A stretch of 64,000 nt of DNA from Patescibacteria group bacterium (GCA_041645075.1 JBAZQS010000001.1:9147-73146); one strand, 5' to 3'; counted from the first letter of the stretch, positions 2,997 to 55,770 are shown. Notes: a model not told the origin generated them from the sequence alone. Numbers and translations: made by a program.

Positions 2997-3815
2997 TCAT
3001 TCTTTGGCCGCTATTTTTCCTCGGAGTTTGTCCAAAATCGGTTGAAGAGCAATTTTTAGCTTCTCCCGCTCTTCCTGGCTCATTTGGAAAAATTCTGATT
3101 TGGTTCGGTTTAAAAGAGCGTTGTTTGGAATTGGCAATCCCAGAACGCGATAGTAAATTCCCTGCGGTTCGGGCCGTTCCAAGTCAAACCAAGAGACCAG
3201 ATTATTTTTATCCAACATCGCGGGAAAAGTATTGGCTGGCGGCGTCATTGGTTCCTGGGAAAGAATATCAATTGTCCTTGCCAGTTCGCTGATTAGAAAT
3301 TGTTTTTTCTTGTCTACCGGTGGATTGATGGCGACAGGAACTGGCGTGGATAATGGGTCCGGTTGAGTGGCGACGGTTTTTTTAGGAGCGGGAGTTGGAG
3401 TTGGAGCGGCGAATATTTTTGCCGCCGGTTCCGTTGATTGAGGCGGCCTAAAAAAATCAACTTGGGGCGCTTTGTTTTCTTGAAAGCCGTAGTTATTGCT
3501 TGAGCCGTTCCAGTTATAGCCGTTCCAGCCCTCGCCATAGCCGGTTCTATTTCGGGAAATTTTGACGATGGCTTCAGTGGCCAAATCTCTGGCTTCGGGG
3601 TCTTTAATGGTGGCGGCCGAGAGAATGCCAGCGGTTTCATCTAAATGGCCGCCATAGCGCATCGCCACCTGGCCGGAATCCACTCGGCCGGCCGGGTCGC
3701 CATACTTCAATGTTTCGGCCGGAGAATGAAACCGGCTCGCGCTGGTCTGAAATTGGTTGTCTGTTTGGGCGCAGGCAGCCAAAAAAAACAAGCCGACAAA
3801 CACCGAGAATTTCAT
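2997..3815 (-). CDS. Lipoprotein, mosaic family member A (C-terminal ~110-aa domain shared with the 4228..4785 ORF)
   Basis: Signal peptide with lipobox FFLAAC. P/T-rich linker. C-terminal region QFLISELARTIDILSQEPM...EFFQMSQEEREKLKIALQP is near-identical to the 4228..4785 ORF. Confidence 0.7.
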   Translation of the reverse strand: MKFSVFVGLFFLAACAQTDNQFQTSASRFHSPAETLKYGDPAGRVDSGQVAMRYGGHLDETAGILSAATIKDPEARDLATEAIVKISRNRTGYGEGWNGYNWNGSSNNYGFQENKAPQVDFFRPPQSTEPAAKIFAAPTPTPAPKKTVATQPDPLSTPVPVAINPPVDKKKQFLISELARTIDILSQEPMTPPANTFPAMLDKNNLVSWFDLERPEPQGIYYRVLGLPIPNNALLNRTKSEFFQMSQEEREKLKIALQPILDKLRGKIAAKE

Positions 3816-7279: not shown

Positions 7280-7299
7280 GTTTTTAATTTATAAGTTTA

Positions 7300-7360
7300 T
7301 AAGTTACTAAGTTTATAAGTTTTTTCCCCTTAGCGACTCACCAACTTATAAACTTAGTAA
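7300..7360. repeat. Perfect 20-bp inverted repeat hairpin between infC and rpmI
   Basis: agttactaagtttataagtt ... aacttataaacttagtaact with a 20-nt loop. Possible intercistronic regulatory or processing structure. Confidence 0.55.
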
Positions 7361-7367
7361 CTGAATT

Positions 7368-18727: not shown

Positions 18728-18811
18728 TGCCGAAGGAGAGAATCGAACTCTCATGACCGTAAGGCCACACGATTTTGAGTCGTGCGCGTCTACCAATTCC
18801 GCCACTTCGGC
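18728..18811 (-). tRNA. tRNA-Leu (anticodon CAA)
   Basis: Minus-strand sequence GCCGAAG-TG-GCGGAATTGGTAGACGC-GCACGA-CTCAAAA-TCGTG-long variable arm-AGAGTTCGATTCTCT-CCTTCGGC-A. Confidence 0.85.
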
Positions 18812-18823
18812 TTATTAATTTTA

Positions 18824-18896
18824 GTAGCAGGGGCGGGAGTTGAACCCGCGACCAATGGCTTATGAGTCCACTGCTCTACCACTGAGCTACCCTGCC
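18824..18896 (-). tRNA. tRNA-Met (anticodon CAT; elongator-type, could be tRNA-Ile2 if lysidinylated), copy 1
   Basis: GGCAGGG-TA-GCTC-AGTGGTA-GAGC-A-GTGGA-CTCATAA-GCCAT-TGGTC-GCGGG-TTCAACT-CCCGC-CCCTGCT-A. It lacks the three G-C pairs of initiator tRNA. Confidence 0.8.
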
Positions 18897-19020
18897 GCAT
18901 TATCACTAAAACACAAAAGCACAGAAAACACAGAAAGCACAAAAACGTAGACCAGATAGTTGTTTCTATGTTTTTGTGTTTTTGTGCTTTAGTGCTTTTG
19001 TGATTTCTGTTGCGGGGGCC
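18897..19020. repeat. Imperfect hairpin / repeat block (cacaaaagcacagaaa motifs) upstream of tRNA-Met copy 1
   Basis: aaaacacaaaagcacagaaaacacagaaagcacaaaaac ... gtttttgtgtttttgtgctttagtgcttttgtg are approximately reverse-complementary. The block is ~75% identical to 21076-21185. Confidence 0.6.
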
Positions 19021-19029
19021 GGATTCGAA

Positions 19030-19102
19030 CCGGCGACCTGCGGGTTATGGGCCCGCCGAGCTGCCAACTGCTCTACCCCGCGTCATTTTTAAACTTTTAT
19101 TA
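19030..19102 (-). tRNA. Initiator tRNA-fMet (anticodon CAT)
   Basis: CGCGGGG-TA-GAGC-AGTTGGCA-GCTC-G-GCGGG-CCCATAA-CCCGC-AGGTC-GCCGG-TTCGAAT-CCGGC-CCCCGCA-A. C1-A72 mismatch and GGG/CCC anticodon stem as in E. coli tRNAfMet. Confidence 0.85.
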
Positions 19103-19385
19103 TTTTAGCATAGAATTGCCGCTTTGGCAAGAAACGGTCACAAAAACAAAAAAACACAAAAGCACAAAAAAACATGGAAACAGGAAAATGAAAATTACAG
19201 AAAAAATAAAGTATTAATTAAATTAATTTTTTTGTTTTAATATTTTCGTGTTCCAATGTTTTGATTTTATTTTAAAATAGAGGTATAATTTAAAGTAGTT
19301 TATCGTCGATTTGAATTATTATTTCCTATAACTATCAGCTTCAGTAAATAATTAATTTAAACATTTAATTACTTATTTATTAACC

Positions 19386-20954
19386 ATGGATAAAAAAATA
19401 AAATTAAAAACTCTATCTGGCCAAAAAATTGCTATCGGTTTTTTGCTGTTTGCTTCCGCCTTCTCACTTCTTGGTACTGCCGTGATGATGGCCATAGCTC
19501 CTAATCCCGTCATTGTTAGTTTTATTTCTCTTATTGACCCTAATAAAGCCACTATTTGGCGTGTCGGTGATACCGTGCAAATCAAATGGAACGCCTCTGC
19601 TGAAGTAAGGTATGTAGCCATGACTTGGACGAAGATTAATAATACGACCAACCGTATTGCCGGTTGGATTACTCCGCCCATGACCGGAGTAGTCAACACA
19701 GGCTCATATTCTTGGAAAATACCCTCAGTAGAACCCAATGGATATCGCTGGAATAATTCGCTTAATAAATATGACAATCCCGTGACCTTAAAAATGGAAT
19801 CCGGTTCCGATTATATTATTCAAATTTTTAATCATGACGGTCTTGATCATACCAGCGATCCCACGGGTAATACTGGAGCCCTGCTTCCATTTGTGGGGAG
19901 TGATTACTTTAATATAATAGCAGATAAAAGCTTTTTAGATTGTCCAATCAGTTATAAGCTGATATTGGTTTCCCAAGCCCATGTTGGCAATTTTAAAGAT
20001 GGTTCGGTTAGCAGTCCATTTAATACTTTAGATGAGGCCAAGGCGGCCGCTCAGGCGGATAGTAAATTAACCAGCGCCGCGCCCGGGTATTGCATTTTTT
20101 TGAATGGAGGAGAAGTGTTTACTAATTTTACTTCTCATAAATATGAAAATGATGCTAAAAGCAAATATGCTTTCGTCTGGGATTTAAACAAGCCCTTGGT
20201 TATGAGCAGTTATGGCACGGGTAAGGCGATTATCAGACAAAAGGATACGTCTATGCCGCCCTCGGCCCTTCTTATCGTCGGTCCGGATACCAAAACCTAT
20301 AATACTGAAGTTAAAATTCAGAAACTTCAATTTGAAAAATGGCAGGCACGGGTTATTTCCATTCGGTATCGTTCCAACGTTAAAATTGTAAATAATGTTA
20401 TTGATAGCGTCGGTACCAAATTTTTAGGGGATGAGGGTACCTCTGGTAATGGTGATAGCGATAGAATTTATGGTGATGGCATAATTTATCCCAAGGATTC
20501 AGATAATCTTATTTTTGACGGTAATATTATGACAAATATGATTAATAATACCAATGGCTCAGACAATAAGTATGATGATGTCCACGCTTTTTATTTGACT
20601 CGAGTTAGTAATGTTACCATTTCAAATAATACTATCAAAAATACCAGTGGCTCGGCCATAAAACCGAGTAAGGGCAGTAGTGATATCAGAATTTTAAATA
20701 ATATCCTAAGTTATGTCGCTCCCTATGTTGGTCAGGGCAGTTATGATCAATTGGGTTTTATTCGCTTGGATGGCGATAGTGGTTGTCCTAGTAACATTAC
20801 CGCTCAAAACAATATTTTTAATTATCCTTATTGTACTGGTTCTAGTTGCTCCGGTAATAAAAAAGCGCAACTTTGTTCCCAGGTTCATTGTAGCGGCTCA
20901 TGTAGTAGTAATATTAATTGGGTTAATAATACAGTGAACCTAAACTGGCAATAG
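19386..20954 (+). CDS. Secreted right-handed parallel beta-helix (pectin-lyase-fold) protein; paralog of the C-terminal domain of the 4092-aa giant protein
   Basis: Signal peptide. C-terminal ~330 aa align with the end of ORF 39303..51581 (GYCI(F/L)L(N/K)GG(E/D)(V/T)FT(N/T)FTSH, KWQARVI, DGNxxTN, NNTIKNTSG/NNTITNISG, YPYCTGSSCS). Confidence 0.75.
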   Translation: MDKKIKLKTLSGQKIAIGFLLFASAFSLLGTAVMMAIAPNPVIVSFISLIDPNKATIWRVGDTVQIKWNASAEVRYVAMTWTKINNTTNRIAGWITPPMTGVVNTGSYSWKIPSVEPNGYRWNNSLNKYDNPVTLKMESGSDYIIQIFNHDGLDHTSDPTGNTGALLPFVGSDYFNIIADKSFLDCPISYKLILVSQAHVGNFKDGSVSSPFNTLDEAKAAAQADSKLTSAAPGYCIFLNGGEVFTNFTSHKYENDAKSKYAFVWDLNKPLVMSSYGTGKAIIRQKDTSMPPSALLIVGPDTKTYNTEVKIQKLQFEKWQARVISIRYRSNVKIVNNVIDSVGTKFLGDEGTSGNGDSDRIYGDGIIYPKDSDNLIFDGNIMTNMINNTNGSDNKYDDVHAFYLTRVSNVTISNNTIKNTSGSAIKPSKGSSDIRILNNILSYVAPYVGQGSYDQLGFIRLDGDSGCPSNITAQNNIFNYPYCTGSSCSGNKKAQLCSQVHCSGSCSSNINWVNNTVNLNWQ

Positions 20955-21003
20955 AATTTGAACATAAAAATACTCCAGATTAAATCCGGAGTATTTTTAT
21001 TTG

Positions 21004-21075
21004 TAGCAGGGGGCGGAGTTGAACCGCCGACCAATGGCTTATGAGTCCACTGCTCTACCACTGAGCTACCCTGCC
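21004..21075 (-). tRNA. tRNA-Met (anticodon CAT), copy 2
   Basis: Same as copy 1 except T-stem GGCGG/CCGCC. Followed by a block homologous to 18897-19020. Confidence 0.8.
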
Positions 21076-21190
21076 AGGATATCACTAAAACACAAAAACA
21101 CAGAAAGCACAAAAACGCAGATCAGATGGTTGTTTCTATGTTTTCGTGTTCCAATGTTTTCGTGCTTTCTGTGTTCCCGTGCTATAATAT
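21076..21190. repeat. Repeat block homologous to 18897-19020, containing a promoter-like cgtgttccaatgtttt...tataat also seen at 19238-19290
   Basis: atcactaaaacacaaaaacacagaaagcacaaaaacgcagatcagatggttgtttctatgttttcgtgttccaatgttttcgtgc. Confidence 0.6.
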
Positions 21191-21194
21191 ATTT

Positions 21195-21962
21195 ATGGGA
21201 CAAATAATTTCTGTCGTCAATCAAAAGGGCGGAGTCGGCAAGACCACCACCTCAATTAACCTCGCGGCTTATCTAAGTAAATTAGGTAAGTTTGTTTTGT
21301 TGGTGGACTTAGACCCGCAGAGCAACGCCACTTCCCATCTGGGCATTTCCCGCGAATTGGACCGGGGCGTTTATGAGGTTTTGACCGGCCCGTATTCTTT
21401 CAGGGATATTGTGGTGGACACCCAGCATGATTTTTACAAATTAGCGCCGTCCACTCAGTCCTTGGCTGGCGCCAATGTGGAATTTGTCAATTTGGACCGC
21501 CGCGAATTCCGTTTATATGATAATTTATTGGAAATAAGAAATGATTTTGATTATATCATTATTGATTGCCCGCCCTCTCTCGGCCTCTTGACTATCAATG
21601 GCTTAGTGGCGTCTGATAGAATATTAATACCGGTTCAAGCCGAATATTTTTCTTTGGAAGGGCTTGGCCAATTAATGTCTACGATTAATCTAATTCAGGA
21701 AAACGTCAAGCCCGAGCTTGATATTTTAGGCGTGGTTTTAACGATGTATGACCGCCGTTGTCGTTTAGCCAATGATGTCTTACAAGAAGTTTATCGTCAT
21801 TTCCCAAATAAAATTTTCCGCTCGGTTATTCCTAGAAATGTCCGCTTATCCGAGGCGCCGAGTTATGGCCAGACGATTTTAAATTATGACCCGAAGTCAA
21901 AAGGCGCCAAGGCGTATGAACGTTTAGCCAGAGAATTTGTCCAATATACCACTTCCCACTAA
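21195..21962 (+). CDS. parA: Chromosome partitioning ATPase ParA/Soj
   Basis: Start at MGQIISVVNQKGGVGKTTT (Walker A KGGVGKTT); the ORF track start at 21126 is an upstream extension. Confidence 0.9.
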   Translation: MGQIISVVNQKGGVGKTTTSINLAAYLSKLGKFVLLVDLDPQSNATSHLGISRELDRGVYEVLTGPYSFRDIVVDTQHDFYKLAPSTQSLAGANVEFVNLDRREFRLYDNLLEIRNDFDYIIIDCPPSLGLLTINGLVASDRILIPVQAEYFSLEGLGQLMSTINLIQENVKPELDILGVVLTMYDRRCRLANDVLQEVYRHFPNKIFRSVIPRNVRLSEAPSYGQTILNYDPKSKGAKAYERLAREFVQYTTSH

Positions 21963-21972
21963 CTTTAATTTT

Positions 21973-22896
21973 ATGCAAAAAATTTCCGGATTGGGCCGCG
22001 GTCTTGGCTCATTGATTCCCCATAAAAAAAGCTTGTCCCCAACCACGATTGGGGATAAGCTTGTCCCCAACCACGATTGGGGAATTGCGTCGGAAAATAA
22101 TAATGAATTTGCCTCTCTTGCCGATGGCCAGGAAAAAATTATTCCCTTGCCGGTTGATAAAATTTCGCCCAATCCCCATCAGCCTAGAAATAATTTTTCC
22201 GAAGAGAGTTTGCGGGAATTAATGGACTCAATCAAAGAGCATGGCATTATTCAGCCATTGATCGTTACCAAAGAAGGGGATGGTTGGCAATTAATCGCCG
22301 GTGAAAGAAGGTGGCGCGCGGCCAAGGCCTTAAAAATGGCAACCGTGCCGGCCATTATCCGCGATATGACCGAACAGAAAAAATTAGAAATTGCTTTGAT
22401 TGAAAATTTACAGCGCCAGGATTTAAATGCCTTAGAAACGGCGGCCGCCTATCGAAAATTAATTGACGAGTTTAATTTGACGCAGGAGCAATTGGCCAAG
22501 AGAATCGGCAAGAGCCGTCCGGCCGTGTCCAATACGATTCGTATTTTATCGGCGGCCGAAGAAGTAAAACAGGCAATTTTACAAGAAAAAATTACCGCCG
22601 GGCACGCGCGGGTCTTGGCCGGCTTGCCCAAAGAGGACCAACTGCTCTTGCTGCAAAAGATTATTGAGAGCACCATGAATGTCCGCGAGGCCGAGCGGGC
22701 CAGCCGAAATATCGTTATCCAAAAGCATATTCGCAATCTTCCGTTTTATCCGGATATTGAAGCGAAAAAGGATTTGCTCCAAGAGGTCTTGGCCACAAAA
22801 GTGGAAATAAAAAAATCCGGCGGCAGTGGCCAGATTATTATTAAATTTTATTCCGAGGAGGAATTGGAAAGTATTTTTAAGAAAATAGTTAATTAG
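21973..22896 (+). CDS. parB: Chromosome partitioning protein ParB (N-terminal region contains a 28-bp tandem direct repeat)
   Basis: MQKISGLGRGLGSLIP N-terminal motif. ParB box ...QPLIVTKEGDGWQLIAGERRWRAAKAL..., HTH. Tandem copies of aagcttgtccccaaccacgattgggg at 22029-22054 and 22057-22082. Confidence 0.88.
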   Translation: MQKISGLGRGLGSLIPHKKSLSPTTIGDKLVPNHDWGIASENNNEFASLADGQEKIIPLPVDKISPNPHQPRNNFSEESLRELMDSIKEHGIIQPLIVTKEGDGWQLIAGERRWRAAKALKMATVPAIIRDMTEQKKLEIALIENLQRQDLNALETAAAYRKLIDEFNLTQEQLAKRIGKSRPAVSNTIRILSAAEEVKQAILQEKITAGHARVLAGLPKEDQLLLLQKIIESTMNVREAERASRNIVIQKHIRNLPFYPDIEAKKDLLQEVLATKVEIKKSGGSGQIIIKFYSEEELESIFKKIVN

Positions 22897-22977
22897 TAAT
22901 TAGTAACTATTAACTAGTAACTGGTAATTTAATTTTTACTGATTACTGATTACTAATTACTAATTACTGATTACCGA
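22897..22977. repeat. Palindromic array of 7-bp repeats (ttactaa/ttactga) between convergent parB and rel
   Basis: taattagtaattagtaactattaactagtaactggtaa ... tactgattactgattactaattactaattactgattaccgatta; the two halves are reverse complements. Confidence 0.6.
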
Positions 22978-24438
22978 TTATTTCCTCATTTTATTTAACG
23001 CCGTCCTGATTTTGTTTTTAGCCATAGAGGTTTTGACATATTCCAGCCAATCCACGCTCGGCCCCCTGCGGTTTTTGTCGGTGATGATTTCCATGACATC
23101 GCCGCTTTTTAATTTATAATTTAAATTCACCATTTGGCCGTTGGCTCTGGCGCCCACATATTGATTGCCCAGAGAAGTATGGACATGGTAGGCGAAGTCA
23201 ATGGGTGTTGAGCCATCAGGCAAATCAAACACATCGCCTTTGGGGCTGAAGACAAAAATACGGTCCTGAAAAATTTCCATCTTTATGTCTCGTAAAAATT
23301 GCTCATTATCCCTGATTTGCTTTTGCCATTCTACTAATTCATTAATCCAGGGCAAATTTGGTTTGGCGATACTGCCATGTTCCTTATAATGCCAATGGGC
23401 GGCAATACCATATTCGGCTTCATCATGCATTTTGTCGGTCCTGATTTGAATTTCTATGATTTCGCCGTCATCGGCAAAGACCGTCGTATGGAGCGATTGA
23501 TAGCCGTTGGGTTTGGGCTGGGCAATATAATCTTTAATCTGGCCGGGCAATGGCTTATATAATTCATGGATAATACCCAAGACATAATAGCAATCACTGA
23601 CCGTCGGGACAACAATCCTTAAAGCGATTAAGTCATAGATTTTTGACAAATCCCGGTCGATCTCGGGCTTTAATAATTTTTTGTATAAACTGTAAATATG
23701 TTTGGTTCGCCCGTGCATAGATAATATTTTAATCGGGATATTTTCTGCCGCTAATTTTCTGCTGATTTCTTTTCTGGTTTTGTTGAGGTGTTTTTCTTTG
23801 CTTTTATATTTTTTCGGTAAAATTTGCCTGATCCAATCATACTCATTAGGATAAACATATTTAAAAGCAATATCTTCCAGTTCGCCTTTGATTTGGCCCA
23901 TGCCCAAGCGATCGGCGATGGACGCGTAAATTTCCAATGATTCGCGGGCAATGCGCAGTCGTTTGTCTGGGGGCAAGGCATCCAAGGTTTTTAAATTATG
24001 AAGACGGTCGGCGAATTTAATCAGCACCACCCTGATATCGTCGCTCATGGCCACAAACATTTTTCTTAAATTTTCCGCGTAACGTTCTATGCCGCGATAT
24101 TTTATTTTTCCTAATTTAGTAATGCCATTTACTAGCGTGGCCACTTCTTTGCCAAAATTTTTCTTTATTTCTTCAATCGGAAATTTGGTATCTTCTGGCA
24201 CATCATGAAGCAGGCCGGCAATAATTGTGGGTAAATCAAGACGGGTTTCGGCCAATTTTTGCGCCACGGCCAATGAATGGAGTATGTATGGTTCGCCCGA
24301 GGCGCGCCGTTGCCCGCGGTGCGCTTCCTCGGCAAAATCATAAGCCAATCTAACCATATCCAAATCATTTTCCGAATAGTTTTCTTTGATGGTTTGGATT
24401 AGTTTTTCCCATTCTTTTTGCGGCGTGGTCGGTTCCAT
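22978..24438 (-). CDS. rel: RelA/SpoT-family (p)ppGpp synthetase/hydrolase (HD + synthetase domains, short form)
   Basis: HD motif LHDVPEDT. Synthetase-domain residues (RxKxxxSxxxK-like), 486 aa; lacks the long C-terminal regulatory region. Confidence 0.85.
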   Translation of the reverse strand: MEPTTPQKEWEKLIQTIKENYSENDLDMVRLAYDFAEEAHRGQRRASGEPYILHSLAVAQKLAETRLDLPTIIAGLLHDVPEDTKFPIEEIKKNFGKEVATLVNGITKLGKIKYRGIERYAENLRKMFVAMSDDIRVVLIKFADRLHNLKTLDALPPDKRLRIARESLEIYASIADRLGMGQIKGELEDIAFKYVYPNEYDWIRQILPKKYKSKEKHLNKTRKEISRKLAAENIPIKILSMHGRTKHIYSLYKKLLKPEIDRDLSKIYDLIALRIVVPTVSDCYYVLGIIHELYKPLPGQIKDYIAQPKPNGYQSLHTTVFADDGEIIEIQIRTDKMHDEAEYGIAAHWHYKEHGSIAKPNLPWINELVEWQKQIRDNEQFLRDIKMEIFQDRIFVFSPKGDVFDLPDGSTPIDFAYHVHTSLGNQYVGARANGQMVNLNYKLKSGDVMEIITDKNRRGPSVDWLEYVKTSMAKNKIRTALNKMRK

Positions 24439-32645: not shown

Positions 32646-33272
32646 ATGTCTATGAGTAATCCGGAGAGCAATTTAGGCCTTGGTAATTACAATTCTCAAA
32701 AATCCCGCTTTGTTCGGACGAAAGAATTCGTCTGGGAAATGTTTAAGGTCGCGGTTGTTTCGCTGGCGATCATTCTCCCGGTTCGTTATTTTTTAATCCA
32801 GCCCTTTTATGTCAAGGGAGCGTCCATGGAGCCGAATTTTTATGATCATGAGTATTTGATCATTGATGAGATTGGTTATCGTTTTAATGAGCCCCAAAGA
32901 GGCGATATAGTGGTTTTTAAATATCCGAAAAATCCCAGGCAATATTTTATAAAAAGAGTTATCGGCCTGCCCGGGGAGCATATAAAAATAGAAAATGGCC
33001 GGATTTACCTATTGAAACCAGGCACTTCTTTTATCCCCTTGGCGGAAAATTATTTGGCGCCGGGCCTGGCGACCGACTTGCCGGCTCGCGGTTATGGCGA
33101 CATCACTTTGGGCGCCGACGAATATTTTTTATTGGGCGATAATCGGGGAGAAAGTTTGGATTCCAGGGTGTTCGGGCCGGTAAAAAGGAGTTTTATTATC
33201 GGCCGCACCTGGTTGCGTGGCTGGCCATTCACCCGGTTGACCATTTTTAATACGCCAAAGTATAACTTTTAA
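32646..33272 (+). CDS. lepB: Signal peptidase I
   Basis: S26 motifs GASMEPN (Ser), VIGLPGE, KRVIG (Lys box), GDNRGESLDSR. Confidence 0.88.
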   Translation: MSMSNPESNLGLGNYNSQKSRFVRTKEFVWEMFKVAVVSLAIILPVRYFLIQPFYVKGASMEPNFYDHEYLIIDEIGYRFNEPQRGDIVVFKYPKNPRQYFIKRVIGLPGEHIKIENGRIYLLKPGTSFIPLAENYLAPGLATDLPARGYGDITLGADEYFLLGDNRGESLDSRVFGPVKRSFIIGRTWLRGWPFTRLTIFNTPKYNF

Positions 33273-33298
33273 CCTTTAACTTTTTACTTTTAACTCTA

Positions 33299-35701: not shown

Positions 35702-38700
35702 ATGTTCAAGTCACGCCCTTCCCTCATGCAAAGGTCGTCCATCACCAAAATATTATTGGTTGTGTTTTTGGTGATTTTTTTGTTTTTAATTTTGCCGACC
35801 ACGACCTGGGCGCAAAACCTTGATCTTGGCTTGGAAAGCGCTCGGGGCATCGGCTTGGCCGAAACCCCGCTCAAGGTGATTATCGCTCGCATCATCCAGA
35901 TTGTTTTGGGTTTTTTGGGCATCTTGACCGTGATTTTGATTATGTACGCCGGCTTTATTTGGATGACGGCGGGCGGTGACGAAAAAAAAATTGAAACGGC
36001 GAAAAAAATACTTCGTGACGCCATCATCGGCCTGATTATAATTTTGGCCGCCTTTATCATCGTCTCCTTTATTTTGCGCGGCTGGGAGACGGGTGGCGGC
36101 GGCCCCGGCGGTCGCGGCCCCGGCGGCGGTCCTGATCTTTGGGGCCTGGGCCAGGATCCGGTGGAAAGCGTTTATCCGGCCAATAGACAAAGGGATGTGC
36201 CCATTAATACGATGATCGCGGTTACTTTTAAGGAGAAAATCAAGCCGAGCACCATCTGCCAAATAGCGGACACGGCGACCCGATGCAATGGCGAAGCCAT
36301 AAAAAGAGATGCAAGAAACAATCTTAATGTGGAGATTTGTAAATTAACCGCCGGTACAACGGCTTGCGAGACGACCGGTGAATTTAGGAAAGAAGATTTT
36401 GCCGCAACCAAGGTCTATAACAACGATGACTATACTTTCGTTTTCATTACTTATCAAAATGACAACAGGAAATATTTGGGCTTGGAAGACAAGCAGAATC
36501 GTGTTTTTCAGGTGACATTAAATCAAGGGATTATGAAAGCTGACGGCAGTGAGACCGTATTTAAAAATTCTACCAATCGGATGTATCGCTGGAGCTTTAC
36601 CACCAACGGCGAGCTGGATTTGGACCCGCCCGAAGTCCAGAGCACGAACGCGGTTTTAAATCCCGAGAGCATTGATAATGTGAGCGGGATTTGGCCCAGC
36701 CCGGATGAAAGGGCCGACACTTATGTATCGGCTGGCGTGGCGACGCGGACTCAATTGATGTTTACCGTCGGGTCGGGTAGCTTTAATCAGGAAATCGTCG
36801 CTTCCGCGACACCGCCCGCGCCCGTAAGCCCAAATACCACAAACGCCACCCTAAGCGGGACATATAGCGGCATAGGTGATGGCACAGTCACCGTGAATAT
36901 TATTGGCAATGCTGTTTCTGTTGCTTGGCCCGGTGTGACTCAACAGTATACCAGCGCTTATGATAGCGGTCTCAATGTAAATATCGGTCCTTATGGTTTA
37001 AATTTCAGATTAAATGAAGTGGTAGCAGGCAGTAATAGCTGGACTTTTAATGTTGTGGCGCCTAAAACCGGCGATCGGGTGCAATTTTTAGATGATAATA
37101 GAGTAATCAGAACATATACCATAGGCAGGGACACAATAGTTTCAGCCGTGGCCGTGAATGGTGATGGCGGAAGATTAAATACCCTAAAAAATATCGTGAC
37201 GAAAATTTTGACGGATTATGGCACGATTTTTCAACGTTGCGCCGTTGATCCAGATCTGTTGTGTCTGGAAACAAAAACCACCGGTTCAGCGACTAATCGC
37301 TATGCCGTAAAATTTTTAATCCAGAATACCACTGCTATTAGTACTGTGTTTAATGCGGCGGTTACGGCCGGTCAAAATATTTTGGAAAGAATAACGGTTA
37401 ATGGCATCAGAGACGCGTATCGCAATACCAAATTTCAGATTAATTTTAATGAGGCGGTGAATCCCTTGGTGATTGATAAAATTTTAGTTAAATATGATAA
37501 AGATTATAATGTCGCGAATGCCACTGAAGCCGCTAATACCGCCGAGACCTCAATCCTAAATACCGCCACCACAACAAAGATAAAATATAAGATTACTAAT
37601 AAATATCGCACCGTTGAATTAACCGGCAATATTGAATGCGGGGTGAATGCTTGCGGCGATAAAATTTATTGCTGGCCGGTAAATAATAAGATAGACACCA
37701 ATGAAGATGGCACTATAGATGTTCTTAATGATTTTGCTCACAAAGCCACTTATTATGAAGTAGAAACACCGGCGGCTAATTTAAAAAAATGCGGTACGGC
37801 TAATGAGGGCTGGTGCAGGACTTGGGGCGGGACTTGCGCCATAGATGGGCCATGCGGTAAAGCCGTGCCCAATGCTGCCAATCAAATAGTTTATTATCCC
37901 AAATCCATACCAACTTGCGTAGGCGATAATGATTCTTGGTGTGAAGGTAGTTGGGGCGGTACCTGTAATGCGGCCTTGGGCAATAAATGCACCAGAGTGG
38001 TCAGTGGAAATTTAGAAATTTATAAGCCCTCGGACAAACCCGAGGATTGGGGTATTTGCCCAACCGTTAATGCCGGTTGGTGTCTGGCTTGGGGCGGTTC
38101 CTGCCTGGCGAACGCGCCTTGTACCAAAATTTTAGCTTCAAACAAATTTTATTATCCTTCATTAGAAACGCCTTTTAGCAACGGCATGACGGACATGGCC
38201 TTAAATTCTTTTAACGGCAGTTTTAATTATTTTCAAGACCCGACTAATCAGAGATATTATGGCTTGGCCAATGGCCAGGAAAAAAACGCCTATATTTTAA
38301 ATTTAGCCAAGCCCTATTATAATCCCTTGGACCCGAGCGGCAGCGGTTTTGGCGATAATTTTCAGTGGAGTTTCTGGCTCTCGGATAAAATTGACTTGCA
38401 GCCGCCCCTTTTGATGAACATTGACCCGATAAAGGATAAGGAGGTAGATAATTTATTATATAAGCCCAAGCTTAATTTCAATAAGGTAATGAGTTACGGC
38501 ACTTTAAGGGCGGGCTGGCTTTATGGCCAAACCATAGAAGAAAGAAATAAGAGATATATTTTACTGACGCCGTTGAGAAACGGTTGGGCGGTCGGCTATA
38601 ACACTAATAGCAGTAATGATGTTGATCGCCGAGATGGCGAGCCCAAATATACCCACACTTTCGTTGAACATGACAGTCCGTTTTCCGTGCCCGCCAGTTA

Positions 38701-39193
38701 CGCGCCCTTGGCCGGCTCGGGCCTAGAATCCATTACCCAGAATTGCTTTTTGCCGGGTAGCGGGCCGAAAAATGCCGGTAGCGGCGCTTGCGTTTATCAA
38801 AATCAAAATAACCCGGAAGCCACGCTCACCACCGGCTGTGTCACCGATGCTGATATTGCTCTCGCGAATCGGGTAAAATTGCCCAATCCCGCTTCTTATG
38901 CCACGCTTTATTGCGATAGAGATGAAATTAACGGCGCTAAAAAATGCGGTCTTAATGATAACGGCACTAATAATCCCAAAGTATATTGTATGGCTTTTCA
39001 CGCGACTTCTACCAAGCCCGAAGTTAATGGCCGGTCGCAAAAAGGCAGCTGGGTTATCAGCCAAGACCATTCGGCTGTTCTATCCGATTTAACCGATGAT
39101 AATGAGAATATAGGTAAAACCGGCTGTTGTTTTGGCAAATGTTTTGATAATAATGGCACGCTTCTTAATTATAATGATGATATAGCCAAATAG
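35702..39193 (+). CDS. Giant surface protein 1 (1163 aa): signal peptide + helical-hairpin membrane anchor module, Gly-rich linker, Cys-rich tandem repeats
   Basis: The N-terminal ~125 aa are paralogous to the N-terminus of ORF 39303..51581 (YAGF(I/L)WMTAGGDEKKIETAKKI). Three tandem ~40-aa repeats C..N.GWC..WGG(T/S)C...C at DNA 37790-38160. A terminator hairpin at 39228-39252 follows. Confidence 0.8.
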   Translation: MFKSRPSLMQRSSITKILLVVFLVIFLFLILPTTTWAQNLDLGLESARGIGLAETPLKVIIARIIQIVLGFLGILTVILIMYAGFIWMTAGGDEKKIETAKKILRDAIIGLIIILAAFIIVSFILRGWETGGGGPGGRGPGGGPDLWGLGQDPVESVYPANRQRDVPINTMIAVTFKEKIKPSTICQIADTATRCNGEAIKRDARNNLNVEICKLTAGTTACETTGEFRKEDFAATKVYNNDDYTFVFITYQNDNRKYLGLEDKQNRVFQVTLNQGIMKADGSETVFKNSTNRMYRWSFTTNGELDLDPPEVQSTNAVLNPESIDNVSGIWPSPDERADTYVSAGVATRTQLMFTVGSGSFNQEIVASATPPAPVSPNTTNATLSGTYSGIGDGTVTVNIIGNAVSVAWPGVTQQYTSAYDSGLNVNIGPYGLNFRLNEVVAGSNSWTFNVVAPKTGDRVQFLDDNRVIRTYTIGRDTIVSAVAVNGDGGRLNTLKNIVTKILTDYGTIFQRCAVDPDLLCLETKTTGSATNRYAVKFLIQNTTAISTVFNAAVTAGQNILERITVNGIRDAYRNTKFQINFNEAVNPLVIDKILVKYDKDYNVANATEAANTAETSILNTATTTKIKYKITNKYRTVELTGNIECGVNACGDKIYCWPVNNKIDTNEDGTIDVLNDFAHKATYYEVETPAANLKKCGTANEGWCRTWGGTCAIDGPCGKAVPNAANQIVYYPKSIPTCVGDNDSWCEGSWGGTCNAALGNKCTRVVSGNLEIYKPSDKPEDWGICPTVNAGWCLAWGGSCLANAPCTKILASNKFYYPSLETPFSNGMTDMALNSFNGSFNYFQDPTNQRYYGLANGQEKNAYILNLAKPYYNPLDPSGSGFGDNFQWSFWLSDKIDLQPPLLMNIDPIKDKEVDNLLYKPKLNFNKVMSYGTLRAGWLYGQTIEERNKRYILLTPLRNGWAVGYNTNSSNDVDRRDGEPKYTHTFVEHDSPFSVPASYAPLAGSGLESITQNCFLPGSGPKNAGSGACVYQNQNNPEATLTTGCVTDADIALANRVKLPNPASYATLYCDRDEINGAKKCGLNDNGTNNPKVYCMAFHATSTKPEVNGRSQKGSWVISQDHSAVLSDLTDDNENIGKTGCCFGKCFDNNGTLLNYNDDIAK

Positions 39194-48300: not shown

Positions 48301-51300
48301 CCAAGAACATATTTGCCCATCGGGAATATGCTCCGACGCCAGCCGCTTCCTGGCAGCCGGTTTGGAGCCAGGTTGAGTACATGAAGGATAATCCCGATCC
48401 ATTCAAAGATCCGTTTACGAATTTCAGCGTTGCCCAGATGTGCCAACCCACGCCGACTTGCGGCAATAACACAATTGAGGCGGGAGAAAATTGTTACAAT
48501 TGCTGGGCCGATGCCGGCTGTGGCAATAGCGCGCTAAATGCGGGCGAAAGCTGTCAACGAAGCGTTGTTGCCGGTGTAGAAAATTGGTCGTGCCGTTGTC
48601 CGGATAGCGACCGTATTCCCTATGCAAATGATAAAACCAAATTAATATCTGATGGATTTCCGGACGTGGCTTGCGGCGGTAAAGCGAGAGATAATTGTCC
48701 TTATGTTTTTAATCTTGATCAAACGGATAGCGATAGCGATGGCATTGGTAATGCTTGTGATAGCTGTCCGACAAGTGCCAATGTCGATCAAAAAGACAGC
48801 GATCGCGACGGCGTGGGCGATGCCTGTGATAATTGTGTCAGTAAATATAATTTGCGAGTAAATGGAAATCAGCCGAATTCTGATGGCGATAATTTTGGCG
48901 ATGCCTGTGATAATTGTTCGACCGTGGCCAATAATGATCAGACGGATGCCGACAGCGATGGCGTGGGTAATGTGTGCGACAACTGTCCGACCATTAAAAA
49001 TCAAAATCAAAATGATATTAATCGCAATGGCCGGGGCGACGCTTGCGAGGTTTATGTTGCGAGTTATTGCGGCAATAGCGTTGTGGAAAATATAAATACG
49101 GGCGGTTATGGCAGTGAGGTTTGCGATGAAGGAGCCGATAATGGCAAGCCCAATCGTTGCAACAGCACTTGCACCGGAATTTTTTCCACTTTCTGCGGCG
49201 ATGGCCAAATGGTAACTGGTGATAATGAACAGTGCGACTGCGGCATTGACCCGGCGCGTTTGCCCGTGGGACCGGCCTGTACGACTTCATGGCCGGCAGG
49301 AGCGGGCTCGCGTCCGACCTGGGATACAGTCAGTTTTACTACGATTAATGGCGTGCCGCCGGATTTGTATTCCACCGATCAAAAAACATTATGGTATTGC
49401 AGCGCCGGTTGCCAACAAACCCGCCAAGACAGCCGTTATTGCGGCGATAGCCGGGTTGATAGCTTAAACGGCGAGCAATGCGATTTAGGAGTACAAACCG
49501 GTCTGACAGACACCACCTATAATTATGACTATGGTACCTGCAATACTCAATGCCAGAGGACTTATTGCGGCGATGGCAAAAAACAGGACCCTAATGGCAT
49601 GGGCCGGGGCGGTCCAAATAATGACGGCAAAGAAGCGTGCGACGGCAGTGATTATGGTTCCGGTGGCCAGCCAATTGGTAAGACGTGCAATAATAATTGT
49701 CAAATTGTGGCAAACACCGTAAATGTAAATTTAGGCGTTTGTGGCGATGGCGTCAAACAAACACCGAATACCAGCGGACTCAATGAAACTTGCGATGAGG
49801 GGGCTTTAAACGGCCAACCTGGCCACTGCAATTCAACTTGTACCGGAGTTTTATTAGATCAATTTTTATATTATGGCCGTATTCATTTTGGAGAAATGTG
49901 TGATGGCACGGTTCATGCTTATTTAGCTACTTATAGCCCATTAATATTAGATAGCGGTTGGTTAAGTATGGCTTCAAAACTTGATAACGCCATGTTTTTG
50001 GTTAATCAAAAAAGCGATGATCCTTGCTCTAAGGGTTCGGATACCCCGGTGCCGGCAGGATATAATGTCGTGGGTGGCATTCATTTGGGCGACAAGGAAA
50101 GAGACGTGGCTTCGGACAATTCTTACTGCTCTTTTATTGCGGCTGTTGGTTATAACGGCACGGCTTGGAATACGGCCATGGGAACGGCCGGGACGAATTT
50201 AGAAGGACCTGGTTGGGTGAAAATCGCGGCTAAAGACGATTCTATTAAATTAGCTATGGTTTATGGGGTAAATCCCGAAAGTCCGCGCGCATCATGTCCG
50301 TCGGGCTATACCGAACAAGGGGCCATATTTGTTGGCTTAACGACTGTGACTGATAATCTGCCTCGGGCGTACATTGGTGGGACTTCCATAAGCAAGGGCT
50401 GGGTTTCTTTCTGTGTGAAAAATAATATTCCGGCGCAGACGAAATTCGAAGTGGGTCAAAGAGATGATTGCAGCATTGTCCAGGCAAATCGTTATTCTTG
50501 CCCGGCCGATTATAAAATGATTTTCGTGTCCACTTCGGGCAGTAGTAGTAATGATGGTTTAAGTGAAGCCGACCCCAGAGCCACCTTAGACCAAGCGCAA
50601 GCCGTGGTCGCGGCCAATCCTTCAGAGCCGGGTTATTGTATTTTATTAAAAGGCGGAGATACATTTACTACTTTTACCTCTCATGGTACAGCAGTTGAAA
50701 CGGGCGAAACTGATGTTAATTCGCATTATGCATTTTTGTGGAATATTAATAAGCCGTTGGTTATGAAGTCTTATGGCGCGCCAAACGCGATTTTACAGCA
50801 ACCATCTGCCCAGTCGGCAACTATGCCGCCCGCGGCCATTGCTATCGCGCGACCAGAATCAAGCCCGTTGACTAGCAAGGTTATTATTTCTAACCTAACT
50901 TTTAAAAATTGGCAGGCCCGGGTTATTTATATGTCTAGTGTGAGGAACGTGGAGATAAATAATAATATTATTGAAGGTGCGGGCACAAAACAATTAGGTG
51001 ATAATGGCGGAGTTTATGGAGATGGAGTTATCTACCCCGAAGATTCTAGTGGCATAGTTGTTGATGGCAATCAAATAACCGATTCACTTAATAGGACTGG
51101 TGATAAGTATGATGATATCCATGCGGTGTATATAAACAGATCTTCCAATATTGAAATAAAAAACAATACGATTACCAATATTTCTGGGCCGGCTCTCAAG
51201 ATGGTTAGAAACCAGACATCCGATATATCAATCCATGATAATACTCTGAATTATATTGGTCCTTATATCGGACAATCGGAAGTCCAATTTGGATTTGTGA

Positions 51301-51581
51301 GGTTGGCCGATAAGGGGGGCGGTTGTCCTACCGGCATAAGAATTTATAGTAATACATTTTGGTATCCGTATTGTACTGGCAGTTCTTGTTCTAATAAGCA
51401 GGTTAATCGCTGTTCGTCCGAGGGCTGTAGCAGTTTTTGCGGATCTAATGATACGCCGAATTCAAGCGGAACGTATGATAATGTAAATGGTAATTTTGGC
51501 GACAATCAGCCGACAGTATTATGGAAAAATGGCGTTTCTGGGGCGTGGGGTACAAATAATTTCAGAGGCGGATGGCAGTAA
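39303..51581 (+). CDS. Giant surface adhesin-like protein 2 (4092 aa): anchor module, Cys-rich regions, LamG/concanavalin-like lectin domain, Myxococcus-type Cys-rich repeats, thrombospondin type-3 Ca-binding repeats, C-terminal parallel beta-helix
   Basis: - Uninterrupted 12.3-kb ORF.
- LamG-like: GLIGYWNFDDGDAKDSSGAGNDG...FDGVDDYIEIP...VSAWIY...LDDVRIYNRVLSDTEIKEL.
- Myxo Cys repeat x3: CGDGIKESSLEECDDRNTINGDGCSSNCLLE.
- TSP3 repeats: DQTDSDSDGIGNACDSC, DQKDSDRDGVGDACDNC, DQTDADSDGVGNVCDNC.
- Beta-helix tail homologous to 19386..20954. Confidence 0.85.
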   Translation: MTAIVKKKKFIAFVLILVLAGIFILFNPILAQDQFGLNSAAGIGLAQNDLKTTIVNIVRIFLGFLGLVAVILIIYAGFLWMTAGGDEKKIETAKKIILGAVIGLIIILSAFAIVSFVLTRLAPPPAEPCVSGTIVSCGPQGCGSKICVNGSWGVCNINTSACDFILNNKLSYIKYFRSDKIPAAGNTFSNWTRNISYNFSGVVGVPKIDDLSVGAYARNRGGFITDTRLYKVEGFDGTVFTDYGPFNPNQTPNEEFDTQIAWDTSALNLQSEWKIKTHVVPSGIATPFESPAIKTKIRAPNCFNGIQDSQSPYGETGIDCGGNPASQYYCGACGGESCSNGGDSSQCLDENCATSVCLPINCLCAQNPIIDWIEPDNGAAGNYVTIGGRYFGNLKGAVYFGNTRANLELNPECNSTWTSNQIIVEVPAIAQNTYQVTVQTHQDFGGLTSNSKDFILNNIVRPGLCNVYNLDIYTDRNVKINAGSANQTGQLIGANFPTTGLKNVVWKFLPTNTTSTGSNWAIDRARDLVPENKRGMTNLNVYNGAQYSNPFRFLVSPGGIGDPCGFADDSPGICSAAEVCQTGLECNILATPTKPACTCQSAANFCNNNGQVEGTEECDGTAFKDNKNQCSNYPGFTGGALSCNRQCRPDTSQCVSVSTTNIPAGMGIFTWSFNTIISPPTPYSCGYDQYGACSISGCATGQRCEVQGNSDEFIEFYNPTGYTVNNFGAWLLVINKTNTSTISNFLPAGASASIPARGFFVLPRSAQFGLPPAYSGAVTIKLVRSANTAYDDKITYGGPGKLPLAIAPTSLGRKIDGLESRSIFSDPLVFTDFSVFARSTKGVSNSAEPAKTGARLLINEISVGIDPCTCRPAALATCANGLLDVGEICDRVGNEDVFQRGTGLCSDYNIGSTGRLSCRNCQIDKSSCQGPLVDITQAAIGMYTWSFNTISQSPFQRPYVVEDCSRTRSCDVGAKMASPTPWSEEWNQVKHPNLYIPQPLACVDAVISARFSNRMNPATINNNTVIVLKCDNTNGKDCRKVSGAVEVYKDNNNLDYDIFKFTPTADLTPNAWYKVVLKSEEIKDYVGLKLDNKTTLLSLSERYCAEITYNGGITTDKDYCWNFQTRPSNVKCNPGCVECSPDPERFRYRFEAKPFKANLDSEDNVCLMLNSWNYLWNWSTDKSDKIFVYNLANQPVATGIALKETIYDAPDKFAKVITQLEVNPNKTDYCRAYIDLTNLVVIEDQSCDKGTTQSPSPWIMSEDACLNGLISARFNLPVADETVKSSGNLIVEKCGGVKDEALAGVGCERQSVNSAQIHIFPYSHLPLSENLRNLIFEQGLSPAFPEGFLINQSENFNPNTWYRVILLGGDNGVRASKIITLADGTESDTNEPQGKLLTPNPNTRTDYNQDGEDDYIWLFKTGSQICEVDSVEVAPADKFMKYTYETQVYNAFAQAANCNVLNSCKYNWQWRSVIEPTDNSNSGDSIATIKNEKDQPSICVGKGGEKIGPTLVDPVQLASAVAEGETNIKAIEPGKDLVHPNQPAYGAKWDYGHLQIGFPKLRITDYKPKGKILCTNENIKITFNEDVKSSSIRVTNPALSADNIKVYKCVGDGVCVKKGLIGYWNFDDGDAKDSSGAGNDGIKKNGVVISPYAEKGMVAIFDGVDDYIEIPNTNTSPLTDKITVSAWIYFNDSSFTTQQWVVNQGRDYYGSGWGILLYNGALRFSVNTNNADDGREITIASPVSSRRWYYVTAVYDSINGAKLYIDGVEKANASAKGKIVYKYNEKITFGVMAFYSPTYFKFSGMLDDVRIYNRVLSDTEIKELAGSTQQNATCYTNDDCPTSLDDMPLNLKVNYPAYVYGYSSGVWTPVWTPELSKELDLSIVNALEPKAKYRVVVNGGPAGPIAWNTNQLGDLNYNVGNGRGEECEPGLYPWKVLSGSCENAFYALQKCVLPYYYNSCPDPANPNDLKNLIKECNRGEAYCDQNCHNTGNTNIASCGDGIKESSLEECDDRNTINGDGCSSNCLLEGSDQKYGSLCGNQRIQTGESCDDGNTANGDGCSDKCLPESGRPNGSRPNAPICGNGKIEIGEDCDDGNKVNDDGCNFRCLNEGSSGGARCGNNVVEKGQPTSFSWTFAVDQSAETCVPVVFNISNCPNGIWEAVVGVNTTMNLNNFAICEHDNTVFNNVAFGNSLWGKILGKIKLVVNKFTNRKSVFAGVGDLCGNGWTIRPNGEFDILEYSSTDNQKIFDFIKKADWAGGHEYKIVGDINRNGGFDEGIDTQASVIMRTHGRCWIEGAKINVWPMGEEKYNDTFFCYGENCGKRTVSLYDDDISADWNTLFPYLKYNDIAVSDPLKPGNQHLYQAWALSTSSDLLKSNIAWSMSNPSYVSQQDFNYSTGVGDGNRNKWFTGGNVGGDGYITAKVTSDSNIDIGKATATTTVKVFLCENPWPSPENFPYYDSANNCKTNSGGCVNTNFELYYCRDSGAAGPDGDLPAVYDPVVIGYSALTPARNVNDLIKEFIFTRQFSLAEATRNIKQTITGDKTITDVGDGRNGCYIQPGYAVTFIESDRCDFVYEINFPKSGDYYLLLKTANDNNSLEKAGLDINHEMDIRVDGVIKGTIIAKASLPNNPQTNIVKLSNISAGKHAIKIDWTNDFYCSGPGGASCPSWTPIDTVTGEYKYFDSNLRIYSLALAEGSNDDAIGVRVVANSNHFSPLFWYRKYFDPNNQGSPSGLLANDYQGVREGRTVYVNAADLNDNKKEIYSNVYLLSYSAAADAITKDIYNGLLANFHFNVQNPFGVCSADATYKCLTDTNCQQANKGYCLLNYSQGGLPDFGVCSDDATYECLTDTNCQKANKGYCLSDKAKLTRDTKRLADLQFINSLLATYNNTKRCNNDHSRLCAGDSGCYGGGSCGNYYPNLLAGSYIVGRTFSAWPSWQATLGNTIGSALPIDPLNGFKGCGDQYDKITCWDNLNKLMRCPDETTYVYTYSSTAINGKSETKNIFAHREYAPTPAASWQPVWSQVEYMKDNPDPFKDPFTNFSVAQMCQPTPTCGNNTIEAGENCYNCWADAGCGNSALNAGESCQRSVVAGVENWSCRCPDSDRIPYANDKTKLISDGFPDVACGGKARDNCPYVFNLDQTDSDSDGIGNACDSCPTSANVDQKDSDRDGVGDACDNCVSKYNLRVNGNQPNSDGDNFGDACDNCSTVANNDQTDADSDGVGNVCDNCPTIKNQNQNDINRNGRGDACEVYVASYCGNSVVENINTGGYGSEVCDEGADNGKPNRCNSTCTGIFSTFCGDGQMVTGDNEQCDCGIDPARLPVGPACTTSWPAGAGSRPTWDTVSFTTINGVPPDLYSTDQKTLWYCSAGCQQTRQDSRYCGDSRVDSLNGEQCDLGVQTGLTDTTYNYDYGTCNTQCQRTYCGDGKKQDPNGMGRGGPNNDGKEACDGSDYGSGGQPIGKTCNNNCQIVANTVNVNLGVCGDGVKQTPNTSGLNETCDEGALNGQPGHCNSTCTGVLLDQFLYYGRIHFGEMCDGTVHAYLATYSPLILDSGWLSMASKLDNAMFLVNQKSDDPCSKGSDTPVPAGYNVVGGIHLGDKERDVASDNSYCSFIAAVGYNGTAWNTAMGTAGTNLEGPGWVKIAAKDDSIKLAMVYGVNPESPRASCPSGYTEQGAIFVGLTTVTDNLPRAYIGGTSISKGWVSFCVKNNIPAQTKFEVGQRDDCSIVQANRYSCPADYKMIFVSTSGSSSNDGLSEADPRATLDQAQAVVAANPSEPGYCILLKGGDTFTTFTSHGTAVETGETDVNSHYAFLWNINKPLVMKSYGAPNAILQQPSAQSATMPPAAIAIARPESSPLTSKVIISNLTFKNWQARVIYMSSVRNVEINNNIIEGAGTKQLGDNGGVYGDGVIYPEDSSGIVVDGNQITDSLNRTGDKYDDIHAVYINRSSNIEIKNNTITNISGPALKMVRNQTSDISIHDNTLNYIGPYIGQSEVQFGFVRLADKGGGCPTGIRIYSNTFWYPYCTGSSCSNKQVNRCSSEGCSSFCGSNDTPNSSGTYDNVNGNFGDNQPTVLWKNGVSGAWGTNNFRGGWQ

Positions 51582-55646: not shown

Positions 55647-55659
55647 ATAAGGCAAAATG

Positions 55660-55770
55660 TAAAATGTAAATATCAAATATCAAAATGACAATGTAAAATT
55701 AAAAATTTTAAATTTTGAACTGTCATTTTCCATTTTGATTTTTACATTTTCAATTATTTATCATTAAAAT
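55660..55770. repeat. AT-rich long inverted repeat in the ftsA-ftsZ spacer
   Basis: atgtaaaatgtaaatatcaaatatcaaaatgacaatgtaaaatt ... tgtcattttccattttgatttttacattttcaat are roughly reverse-complementary. Confidence 0.45.

Follow-up and report, generated by a model that had tools for sequence, protein, structure and literature searches.

Two copies of a CAT-anticodon tRNA, a beta-helix protein gene and palindromic spacers beside parAB in a Candidatus Buchananbacteria genome

Genomes of the Candidate Phyla Radiation (CPR, Patescibacteria) are tiny and normally keep one copy per transfer RNA (tRNA). A stretch of 64,000 nucleotides from a Candidatus Buchananbacteria genome (Patescibacteria group bacterium GCA_041645075.1, JBAZQS010000001.1:9147-73146; hereafter the window) departs from this, and raises the question of how two near-identical tRNA genes with a CAT anticodon, here called X and X′, came to flank an initiator tRNA and the gene of a 522-aa beta-helix protein just upstream of the partition genes parA and parB. 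The initial annotation of the stretch had proposed a duplication or recombination at tRNA-Met that captured, or exported, the tip-domain gene of a giant adhesin encoded 18 kb away. Our analysis retains the duplication and insertion but not the exchange with the giant adhesin: the locus is probably the product of a local rearrangement, confined to one lineage, in a conserved tRNA cluster of the chromosome.

A derived arrangement of the tRNA cluster upstream of parA

Four minus-strand tRNA genes lie between positions 18728 and 21075, with ARAGORN and Rfam in agreement (Table 1). The interval between X and X′ is 2106 nt long and contains the initiator tRNA (tRNA-fMet) and the 522-aa open reading frame (ORF), which confirms, from tRNA discriminators and Pfam, the 2.1-kb segment described earlier. 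The two CAT tRNAs with their hairpin blocks of ~110 bp were also recovered, the start of the second tRNA being corrected to 21003. These blocks, hpA (112 nt) and hpB (119 nt), are found on the 5′ side of X and X′, are ~86% identical with one 9-nt indel, and are built of four to seven CACARAAR units of 8–9 nt followed by inverted units. An identical sequence is present in a MEGAHIT contig from ENA (L001), in a Logan contig of another run (L002) and in an NCBI metagenome-assembled genome. As these independent assemblies agree and the two tRNA copies differ from each other, an assembly artefact is unlikely.

Relatives were collected as ParB-anchored loci (identified here by L numbers), which also place the organism in Candidatus Buchananbacteria, and closer ones were added through tRNA-anchored metagenome loci. 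For the synteny count, we retained the loci, 69 in all, that have 1.2 kb or more of sequence upstream of parA, and counted tRNAs within 3 kb. Exactly one X and one tRNA-fMet were found upstream of parA in 35 of them, X alone in 8 and neither in 26, while two copies of X were found in none of the 69. A tblastn search of the fetched relatives' loci (E ≤ 1e-5) returned no homologue of the beta-helix protein except in the same-sequence copies L001, L002 and L083. Since no relative among the 69 has a second X or the beta-helix gene, the arrangement of the window is a derived, lineage-specific insertion and duplication, and the synteny thus supports the earlier suggestion that the second tRNA, the hairpin block and the protein gene were all added at the tRNA cluster. 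In the closest arrangements (L004, L007, L144 and L128), the order before parA is Leu-X-fMet, and a hairpin spacer may be present or absent. Among the closest relatives, the cluster order is Leu-X-fMet, X-fMet-Leu (both opposite to parA) or inverted, and this variety shows the tRNA-parA junction to be prone to rearrangement.

X and X′ are identical at 69 of 73 positions. All four differences correspond to two compensatory swaps of T-stem pairs (GCGGG/CCCGC in X, GGCGG/CCGCC in X′), so that both copies keep perfect stems. The T-stem allele of X is common to L004, L005, L100, L128 and L144, and an intermediate stem, GCCGG, is present in L091 and L129; the arm of X′ (GGCGG/TTCAACT/CCGCC) was found in this organism alone among the relatives compared. 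Because the allele of X is shared with five relatives, that of X′ is unique and the relatives are arranged as Leu-X-fMet, the copy in the Leu-X-hairpin-fMet context is ancestral, and X′, hpB and the beta-helix gene are derived.

It could be argued that X′ and the beta-helix gene were imported together by tRNA-anchored homologous recombination, with no local duplication of X. The 4 nt that separate X′ from X are comparable to the 2–3 nt that separate X from its orthologues in other species, and the gene has a low GC content and its nearest homologues in another class-level lineage. However, the block at X′ is the species-specific CACAAAAR palindrome, ~86% identical to hpA; a motif search found the CACAAAAR unit in 0 of 80 ParB-anchored relatives' loci, and the metagenome loci added later showed nothing similar to the block (E ≤ 1e-8). 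The confinement of this block to the species suggests a local origin of the X′-hairpin unit, and the anticodon stem of X′ (GTGGA/GCCAT) is likewise specific to the window. We consider a joint import improbable.

The segment could also be, or descend from, a tRNA-targeting integrative element, the tRNA copies being attL/attR-type attachment (att) repeats and the beta-helix gene the cargo. As in tRNA-targeted islands, direct repeats with a tRNA gene in them enclose lineage-specific cargo that relatives lack, and L005, L091, L012 and L013 carry partial tRNA-fragment duplications around small inserts at the cluster, suggesting that some insertion process targets these tRNAs. The Logan contig spans exactly one repeat period, its ends overlapping by 30 nt, but a k=31 graph would give this overlap for any exact repeat of 48 nt. 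Unlike islands of this kind, the segment is only 2.1 kb long and encodes no integrase, recombinase or transposase (ORFs of at least 80 aa, Pfam), its sole other ORF of that size being antisense and nested in the beta-helix gene (19373-19777), and the beta-helix protein matching no Pfam family but Beta_helix. The repeated unit is the entire tRNA with ~110 nt of 5′ flank, where an att core would be expected to cover the 3′ end of the tRNA, and its copies are 86–95% identical with compensatory changes and an indel, whereas att repeats are short and identical. Moreover, excision between the tRNA copies would remove the only initiator tRNA of the window, an essential gene. An integrative element is therefore a very unlikely source of the segment.

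A local rearrangement, as we favor, can be compared with the segmental or tandem duplications of other bacterial tRNA clusters, in which, as here, an intact tRNA and its spacer are doubled in direct orientation (~2.2 kb apart in the window) and the cloverleafs remain intact. It differs from them in that the genome is a very small CPR genome with 69 relatives lacking the second copy, in that a foreign-looking protein gene is located at the junction, and in that the divergence between the copies consists of compensatory changes in a stem.

In relatives, GC-rich inserts of ~100–130 nt (CCTGGGCAGCG...CTTCTGCCCG) occur several per locus in L005 (6388-6545, 6700-6830) and L091 (8489-8620, 8770-8897, 9005-9100), inside partial copies of X and tRNA-fMet and with breakpoints in the T-loop or D-loop. 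They may be debris of pseudo-tRNAs or a small insertion element that targets tRNAs; the GC-rich structured spacers and inserts of relatives had no match in Rfam. The Falkowbacteria relative L028 encodes a 97-aa ORF with a GIY-YIG domain between X and tRNA-fMet (3507-3800).

ARAGORN does not distinguish elongator tRNA-Met from tRNA-Ile2(CAU), and the isotype of X was judged by published acceptor-stem discriminators, following the criteria of Silva et al. (PMC1635315). In that work, Ile2(CAU) is indicated by G3, A3, C70 or U70, and the pairs C4-G69 and C5-G68 are frequent in Ile2 (PMC1635315). The acceptor stem of X reads G1-U72, G2-C71, C3-G70, A4-U69 and G5-C68; C is found at position 3 in every X orthologue seen, and in none of them at position 4 or 5. 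By these discriminators, X and X′ are more likely to be elongator tRNA-Met than tRNA-Ile2. The C3-G70 pair is likewise found in Ile2 of Escherichia coli. A BLAST comparison of X with annotated tRNAs of E. coli and of phages gave tRNA-Lys as the best match in E. coli and mixed labels among the phage tRNAs, and the matches labelled tRNA-Ile had GAT anticodons. In X and all its orthologues (for example, L004 6777-6849 and L010 6926-7002), the G1-U72 wobble is conserved across the clade, and the 31-39 pair is non-Watson-Crick, A31 standing opposite G, C or A.

The identity of tRNA-fMet rests on a C1xA72 mismatch (5′ CGCGGGG ... CCCCGCA-A 3′), on an anticodon stem closed by three consecutive G-C pairs (GCGGG-CCCAUAA-CCCGC) and on the D stem GAGC/GCTC, which provides the initiator discriminators A11-U24 and G12-C23 (PMC1635315). 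It carries C33 (loop CCCAUAA) in place of the near-universal U33, as do many relatives (for example, L005 and L012–L014), whereas the initiator tRNAs of L008, L073 and L082 retain U33.

Origin of the beta-helix gene

The 522-aa protein has a hydrophobic segment at its N-terminus, followed by ~140 aa that match no Pfam family, and ends in a right-handed beta-helix (aa 186-522); its N-terminal 185 aa have no paralogue in the window. The beta-helix belongs to Pfam Beta_helix (PF13229; 28.1 bits for a gathering cut-off of 25.9), and its AlphaFold2 (AF2) model (pLDDT 77.7, pTM 0.85) is made of stacked short strands. The best Foldseek matches of this model were beta-helix polysaccharide lyases and glycosidases (E ~2e-5, TM-score ~0.5, identity 10–15%), while a sequence search of the PDB gave a best E of about 0.04. 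Together with fusions to PG_binding_1 in the nearest relatives and to type IX secretion system (T9SS) sorting domains, CBM96 and GH115_C in more distant ones, these matches recall polysaccharide lyases, glycosidases and phage depolymerases, and the C-terminal domain is most likely a secreted module that binds or cleaves glycans. It is unlike those enzymes in its low identity and TM-score to solved structures, in that no catalytic residues were identified and in the rarity of its family: among 1.84 billion, an exhaustive HMMER search found just 36 cluster representatives with E ≤ 1e-3.

In the 522-aa protein, residues 186-509 align with residues 3733-4049 of the giant protein (4092 aa) at 46% identity over 334 aa (E 4e-84), which confirms that the C-terminal ~330 aa of the two proteins are paralogous, as judged by eye at ~50% in the initial annotation. 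Such a clear homology, between two domains that fall together in one small CPR subclade of an uncommon family, could suggest that the gene is a recent intragenomic copy, or the donor, of the giant's C-terminal domain, exchanged through recombination at tRNA-Met. However, the nearest relatives of the standalone domain are Vogelbacteria proteins with a PG_binding_1 (peptidoglycan-binding) domain, which are 57–60% identical to it, as opposed to 46–50% for the giant's domain. The neighbour-joining tree agrees, grouping the standalone domain with the Vogelbacteria proteins and placing the giant's domain outside that pair. The nucleotide similarity of the two domains in the window is just 64% over 303 nt, and neither a tRNA nor a CACAAAAR block is found near the 3′ end of the giant gene. 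The standalone domain is thus an old paralogue of the giant's tip, and the capture or export proposed earlier is scarcely credible as a recent event.

The GC content of the beta-helix gene is 0.388, compared to 0.432 for the window, and its codon usage is enriched in neither AUA nor AUG. The giant protein begins with a domain resembling type IV secretion system (T4SS) pilins and carries TIG, Big_5, Laminin_G_3 and TSP3 repeats ahead of its beta-helix tip. It is adjacent to another large protein (1163 aa, 35702-39193, the giant being encoded at 39303-51581), and both start with a T4SS-pilin/TrbC-like domain.

Palindromic blocks at the cluster and elsewhere in the genome

Both blocks fold into hairpins of ~40 bp (hpA, -40.5 kcal/mol, z -7.0; hpB, -43.3 kcal/mol, z -7.9). 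The periodic CACARAAR motif has 11 matches in the window for 0.07 expected, all of them at 18904-19002, 19139-19169 and 21083-21105, and the second of these positions belongs to a third, degenerate copy of the palindrome, block C, of which the part 19169-19262 is self-complementary at 72%. In a three-way alignment, the first 18 columns of the right arm of hpB are those of hpA, the next 16 (CGTGTTCCAATGTTTT) are identical to block C, and the remainder is hpA-like again, so the arm is a mosaic of hpA and block C. A 31-nt motif recurs at 19232-19262 and 21130-21160 with 90% identity. The promoter-like motif reported upstream of both the beta-helix gene and parA does recur, then, but as the right arm of a degenerate palindrome copy and not as an independent promoter box.

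The repeat block is not special to tRNA-Met, as many such palindromes occur elsewhere in this genome and in those of its relatives. Further palindromes were found in the window at 7280-7365, 22884-22980 and 55653-55755, each with tandem units of its own, 7–8 nt long (listed as GTTTATAA; TAACTAG/TTACTGA; AAAATGT), and at 33263-33295. Each of them starts a few bases from a stop codon, and the one at 22884-22980 fills the gap between the stop codons of the convergent parB and relA/spoT genes. All palindromes found outside the tRNA cluster are intergenic, with 10 of 12 lying within ~10 nt of a stop codon. In L004, L128, L144, L015, L132, L031 and L198, the spacer between tRNA-fMet and X is a hairpin of periodic units 80–140 nt long, with a different unit in each lineage, while other relatives have spacers of 7–16 nt.

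This distribution suggests that the blocks act as hairpins at transcript ends or as insulators, either terminator-like or RNA-stabilising, which would evolve by turnover of their units. In the same vein, hpA begins at the base right after the 3′ end of tRNA-fMet; hpB is not located at any gene 3′ end. A natural comparison is with repetitive extragenic palindromic (REP) elements, bacterial interspersed mosaic elements (BIMEs), intercistronic stem-loops and bidirectional intrinsic terminators, which are also long, stable intergenic hairpins placed mostly directly after stop codons, including between convergent genes. In contrast with these, the palindromes do not form a dispersed family with a single consensus, since each site has its own tandem unit of 7–9 nt; at one and the same locus, sister lineages have different units; and the stems are AT-rich, 30–45 bp long and devoid of a separate U-tail. 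One might go further and see in them an undescribed, clade-wide intergenic element of the Patescibacteria: factor-independent, bidirectional transcript-end or insulator hairpins with concerted turnover of their units, which would also serve as a recombinogenic substrate for the frequent inversions, duplications of tRNA fragments and gene insertions at the tRNA-Leu/Met/fMet-parAB junction, including the event in the window. We regard this broader proposal as possible but doubtful.

Alternatively, the CACAAAAR arrays might be DNA-level binding sites for a protein, iteron- or operator-like, acting on parAB or on the tRNA promoters; a centromere-like site is conceivable, and the array would have been duplicated because it regulates both the new gene and parA. 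Plasmid partition systems are known to have arrays of short repeats ahead of their par operons, for instance heptad arrays bound by ribbon-helix-helix proteins, and the window shares with these operator or centromere arrays units of 7–9 bp (8–9 bp for CACAAAAR) in direct and then inverted runs, immediately upstream of parA and overlapping its promoter. The arrays also overlap the stretch that immediately precedes the -35 box of the tRNA-fMet promoter, and the palindromes are near-perfect at the DNA level with no consistent strand bias. In addition, canonical parS (the 16-bp palindrome TGTTNCACGTGAAACA) has no match with up to three mismatches in the window, and none with up to two in 83 of the 84 sequences scanned (the window and 83 related loci). 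However, none of the relatives has CACAAAAR-type arrays upstream of parA, not even L003, whose ParB is 90% identical; unrelated units at unrelated gene ends of the same genome would each require a separate binding protein; and ParB is of the standard chromosomal type with helix-turn-helix and ParB_N domains (Pfam), unlike the plasmid systems. Binding sites are thus an unlikely explanation of the arrays.

Other candidates were rejected. TIGR (tandem interspaced guide RNA) arrays consist of units that yield 36-nt RNAs with two spacers of 8–12 nt and box C/D motifs, beside a Tas gene with a Nop domain (PMC12045711). Tandem short-period arrays with palindromic stems are reported in CPR genomes among them (PMC12045711), but the units found here are 8–9 nt long and lack spacers, and Pfam scans of the neighbouring proteins gave no Nop-domain match. 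Selection at the RNA level, as judged from G-U asymmetry, was rejected too: hpB alone is asymmetric (-43.3 kcal/mol on the minus strand, -31.8 kcal/mol on the plus strand, with 9 G-U pairs), and eight other hairpins show no consistent bias. Across the window, only the tRNAs pass the Rfam thresholds, with miRNA-like matches far below gathering scores.

For the local rearrangement that we favor, the following course can be proposed. The ancestral order, which relatives retain, is tRNA-Leu(CAA), X, a spacer (often a hairpin), tRNA-fMet, divergent promoters and parA-parB. In this lineage, some 1.9–2.2 kb was added between tRNA-fMet and parA, namely a beta-helix surface or carbohydrate-active gene with its own terminator, probably taken from a horizontally circulating pool, a functional-looking X′ and one more palindromic spacer, copied from the first. 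hpA, block C and hpB are three local copies of one member of the genome-wide palindrome class. Being long, self-complementary and internally repetitive, such blocks could readily undergo slippage, unequal recombination and gene conversion. The duplication of X and its spacer may have been resolved by recombination or gene conversion among the blocks, which the mosaic right arm of hpB would fit, and the same recombination would have provided the new gene with a copy of the parA-type promoter arm.

Several observations weigh against parts of this account. A single derived sequence allows no unique reconstruction of the mechanism, nor of whether duplication or insertion came first, and the pre-event state is unseen, the locus of the closest relative (L003) ending 90 nt upstream of parA. 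Exact look-ups of the neighbouring proteins, which could have revealed variant alleles lacking the insertion, gave only the same contig. No sigma-70-like promoter scoring at least 9/12 was found upstream of X′, which makes its expression conjectural. As for a terminator-like role of the blocks, the terminator scan called nothing at 18897-19008 or 21076-21194, their AT-rich stems of ~40 bp have no separate U-tail, as a classical intrinsic terminator would, and folding across lineages revealed no consistent asymmetry between sense and antisense strands that would point to a function in RNA. A role at the DNA level, or no function, is possible for them.

The event itself is real but fairly ordinary, and the palindromes are the more general curiosity. 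A duplicated and compensatorily diverged elongator tRNA beside a new surface gene nevertheless offers a clean, datable case of accessory gain, in which a surface function was acquired with no obvious mobile-element machinery. Tandem-unit palindromes fill the intergenic gaps of the clade, and rearrangements are concentrated at the tRNA cluster next to parAB; both points could help to annotate transcript boundaries and to explain contig breaks in uncultured genomes. The finding touches no long-standing open question.

Transcription signals and neighbouring features

Promoter calls were made as matches to the sigma-70 consensus. The good match upstream of tRNA-fMet, whose TTGCCA...TAAAAT boxes are also found in L007, suggests that tRNA-fMet, hpA, X and tRNA-Leu are transcribed as one operon. 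The hairpin at 20964-21000 fell below the threshold of three G-C pairs used in the terminator scan. parA starts six bases past TGcTATAAT, and a TATAAT 6–10 nt before the parA ATG is also present in L003 (80-92), L004 (7207-7227), L005 (7190-7210) and L007 (7214-7235). Such a short distance implies a leaderless or near-leaderless mRNA, which would be conserved in the clade.

Table 1 Features of the tRNA cluster, the neighbouring parAB genes and related elements in the window.
Feature	Position	Strand	Evidence and remarks
tRNA-Leu(CAA)	18728..18811	-	ARAGORN; Rfam 60.1 bits; first member of the cluster; adjoins parA in most relatives
tRNA(CAT) X, probable elongator tRNA-Met, ancestral copy	18824..18896	-	ARAGORN; Rfam 69.7 bits
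hpA, palindromic block (fMet-X spacer)	18897..19008		~5 CACAAAAR units, 15-nt loop, ~5 inverted units
Initiator tRNA-fMet	19009..19082	-	ARAGORN, Rfam; C1xA72, GGG/CCC anticodon stem, A11-U24, unusual C33
Putative sigma-70-like promoter of the fMet-X-Leu tRNA operon	19102..19130	-	TTGCCA-17-TAAAAT with TG, 10/12
Block C, third degenerate palindrome copy	19139..19262		In the divergent fMet/beta-helix promoter region
Promoter-like site of the beta-helix gene	19261..19289	+	TTGATT-17-TATAAT, 10/12; consensus match only
ORF of the 522-aa beta-helix protein	19386..20954	+	Pfam Beta_helix, AF2, Foldseek
Bidirectional terminator-like hairpin between the beta-helix gene and X′	20964..21000		18-nt arms, 94% complementary; flanking A and T runs
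tRNA(CAT) X′, derived second copy	21003..21075	-	ARAGORN; Rfam 67.5 bits; two compensatory T-stem swaps
hpB, palindromic block	21076..21194		Left arm like hpA; right arm a mosaic of hpA and block C, carries the parA promoter
Extended -10, TGcTATAAT	21180..21188	+	6 nt before the parA ATG; read from the sequence
parA; parB	21195..21962; 21937..22896	+	Pfam and synteny; conserved right-hand neighbours of the tRNA cluster
Tandem-unit palindrome	22884..22980		7-nt TAACTAG/TTACTGA units; fold z -6.3/-7.0
C-terminal beta-helix domain of the 4092-aa protein (39303-51581)	50499..51449	+	Old paralogue of the inserted gene

The region was also considered as an origin of replication and rejected: no DnaA box (TTWTNCACA) occurs between 1 and 43 kb, and the cumulative skew shows no switch, climbing on both sides of 19–21 kb. 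The ParB proteins of the clade may use a site other than canonical parS, or parS may sit elsewhere. The 5′ part of parB contains a perfect tandem repeat of two 28-nt units (22029-22083), each of which holds the inverted-repeat motif TCCCCAA-N6-TTGGGGA. Of the related loci, only that of the closest relative, L003, has this motif, and there it is also present twice (926-943 and 978-995).

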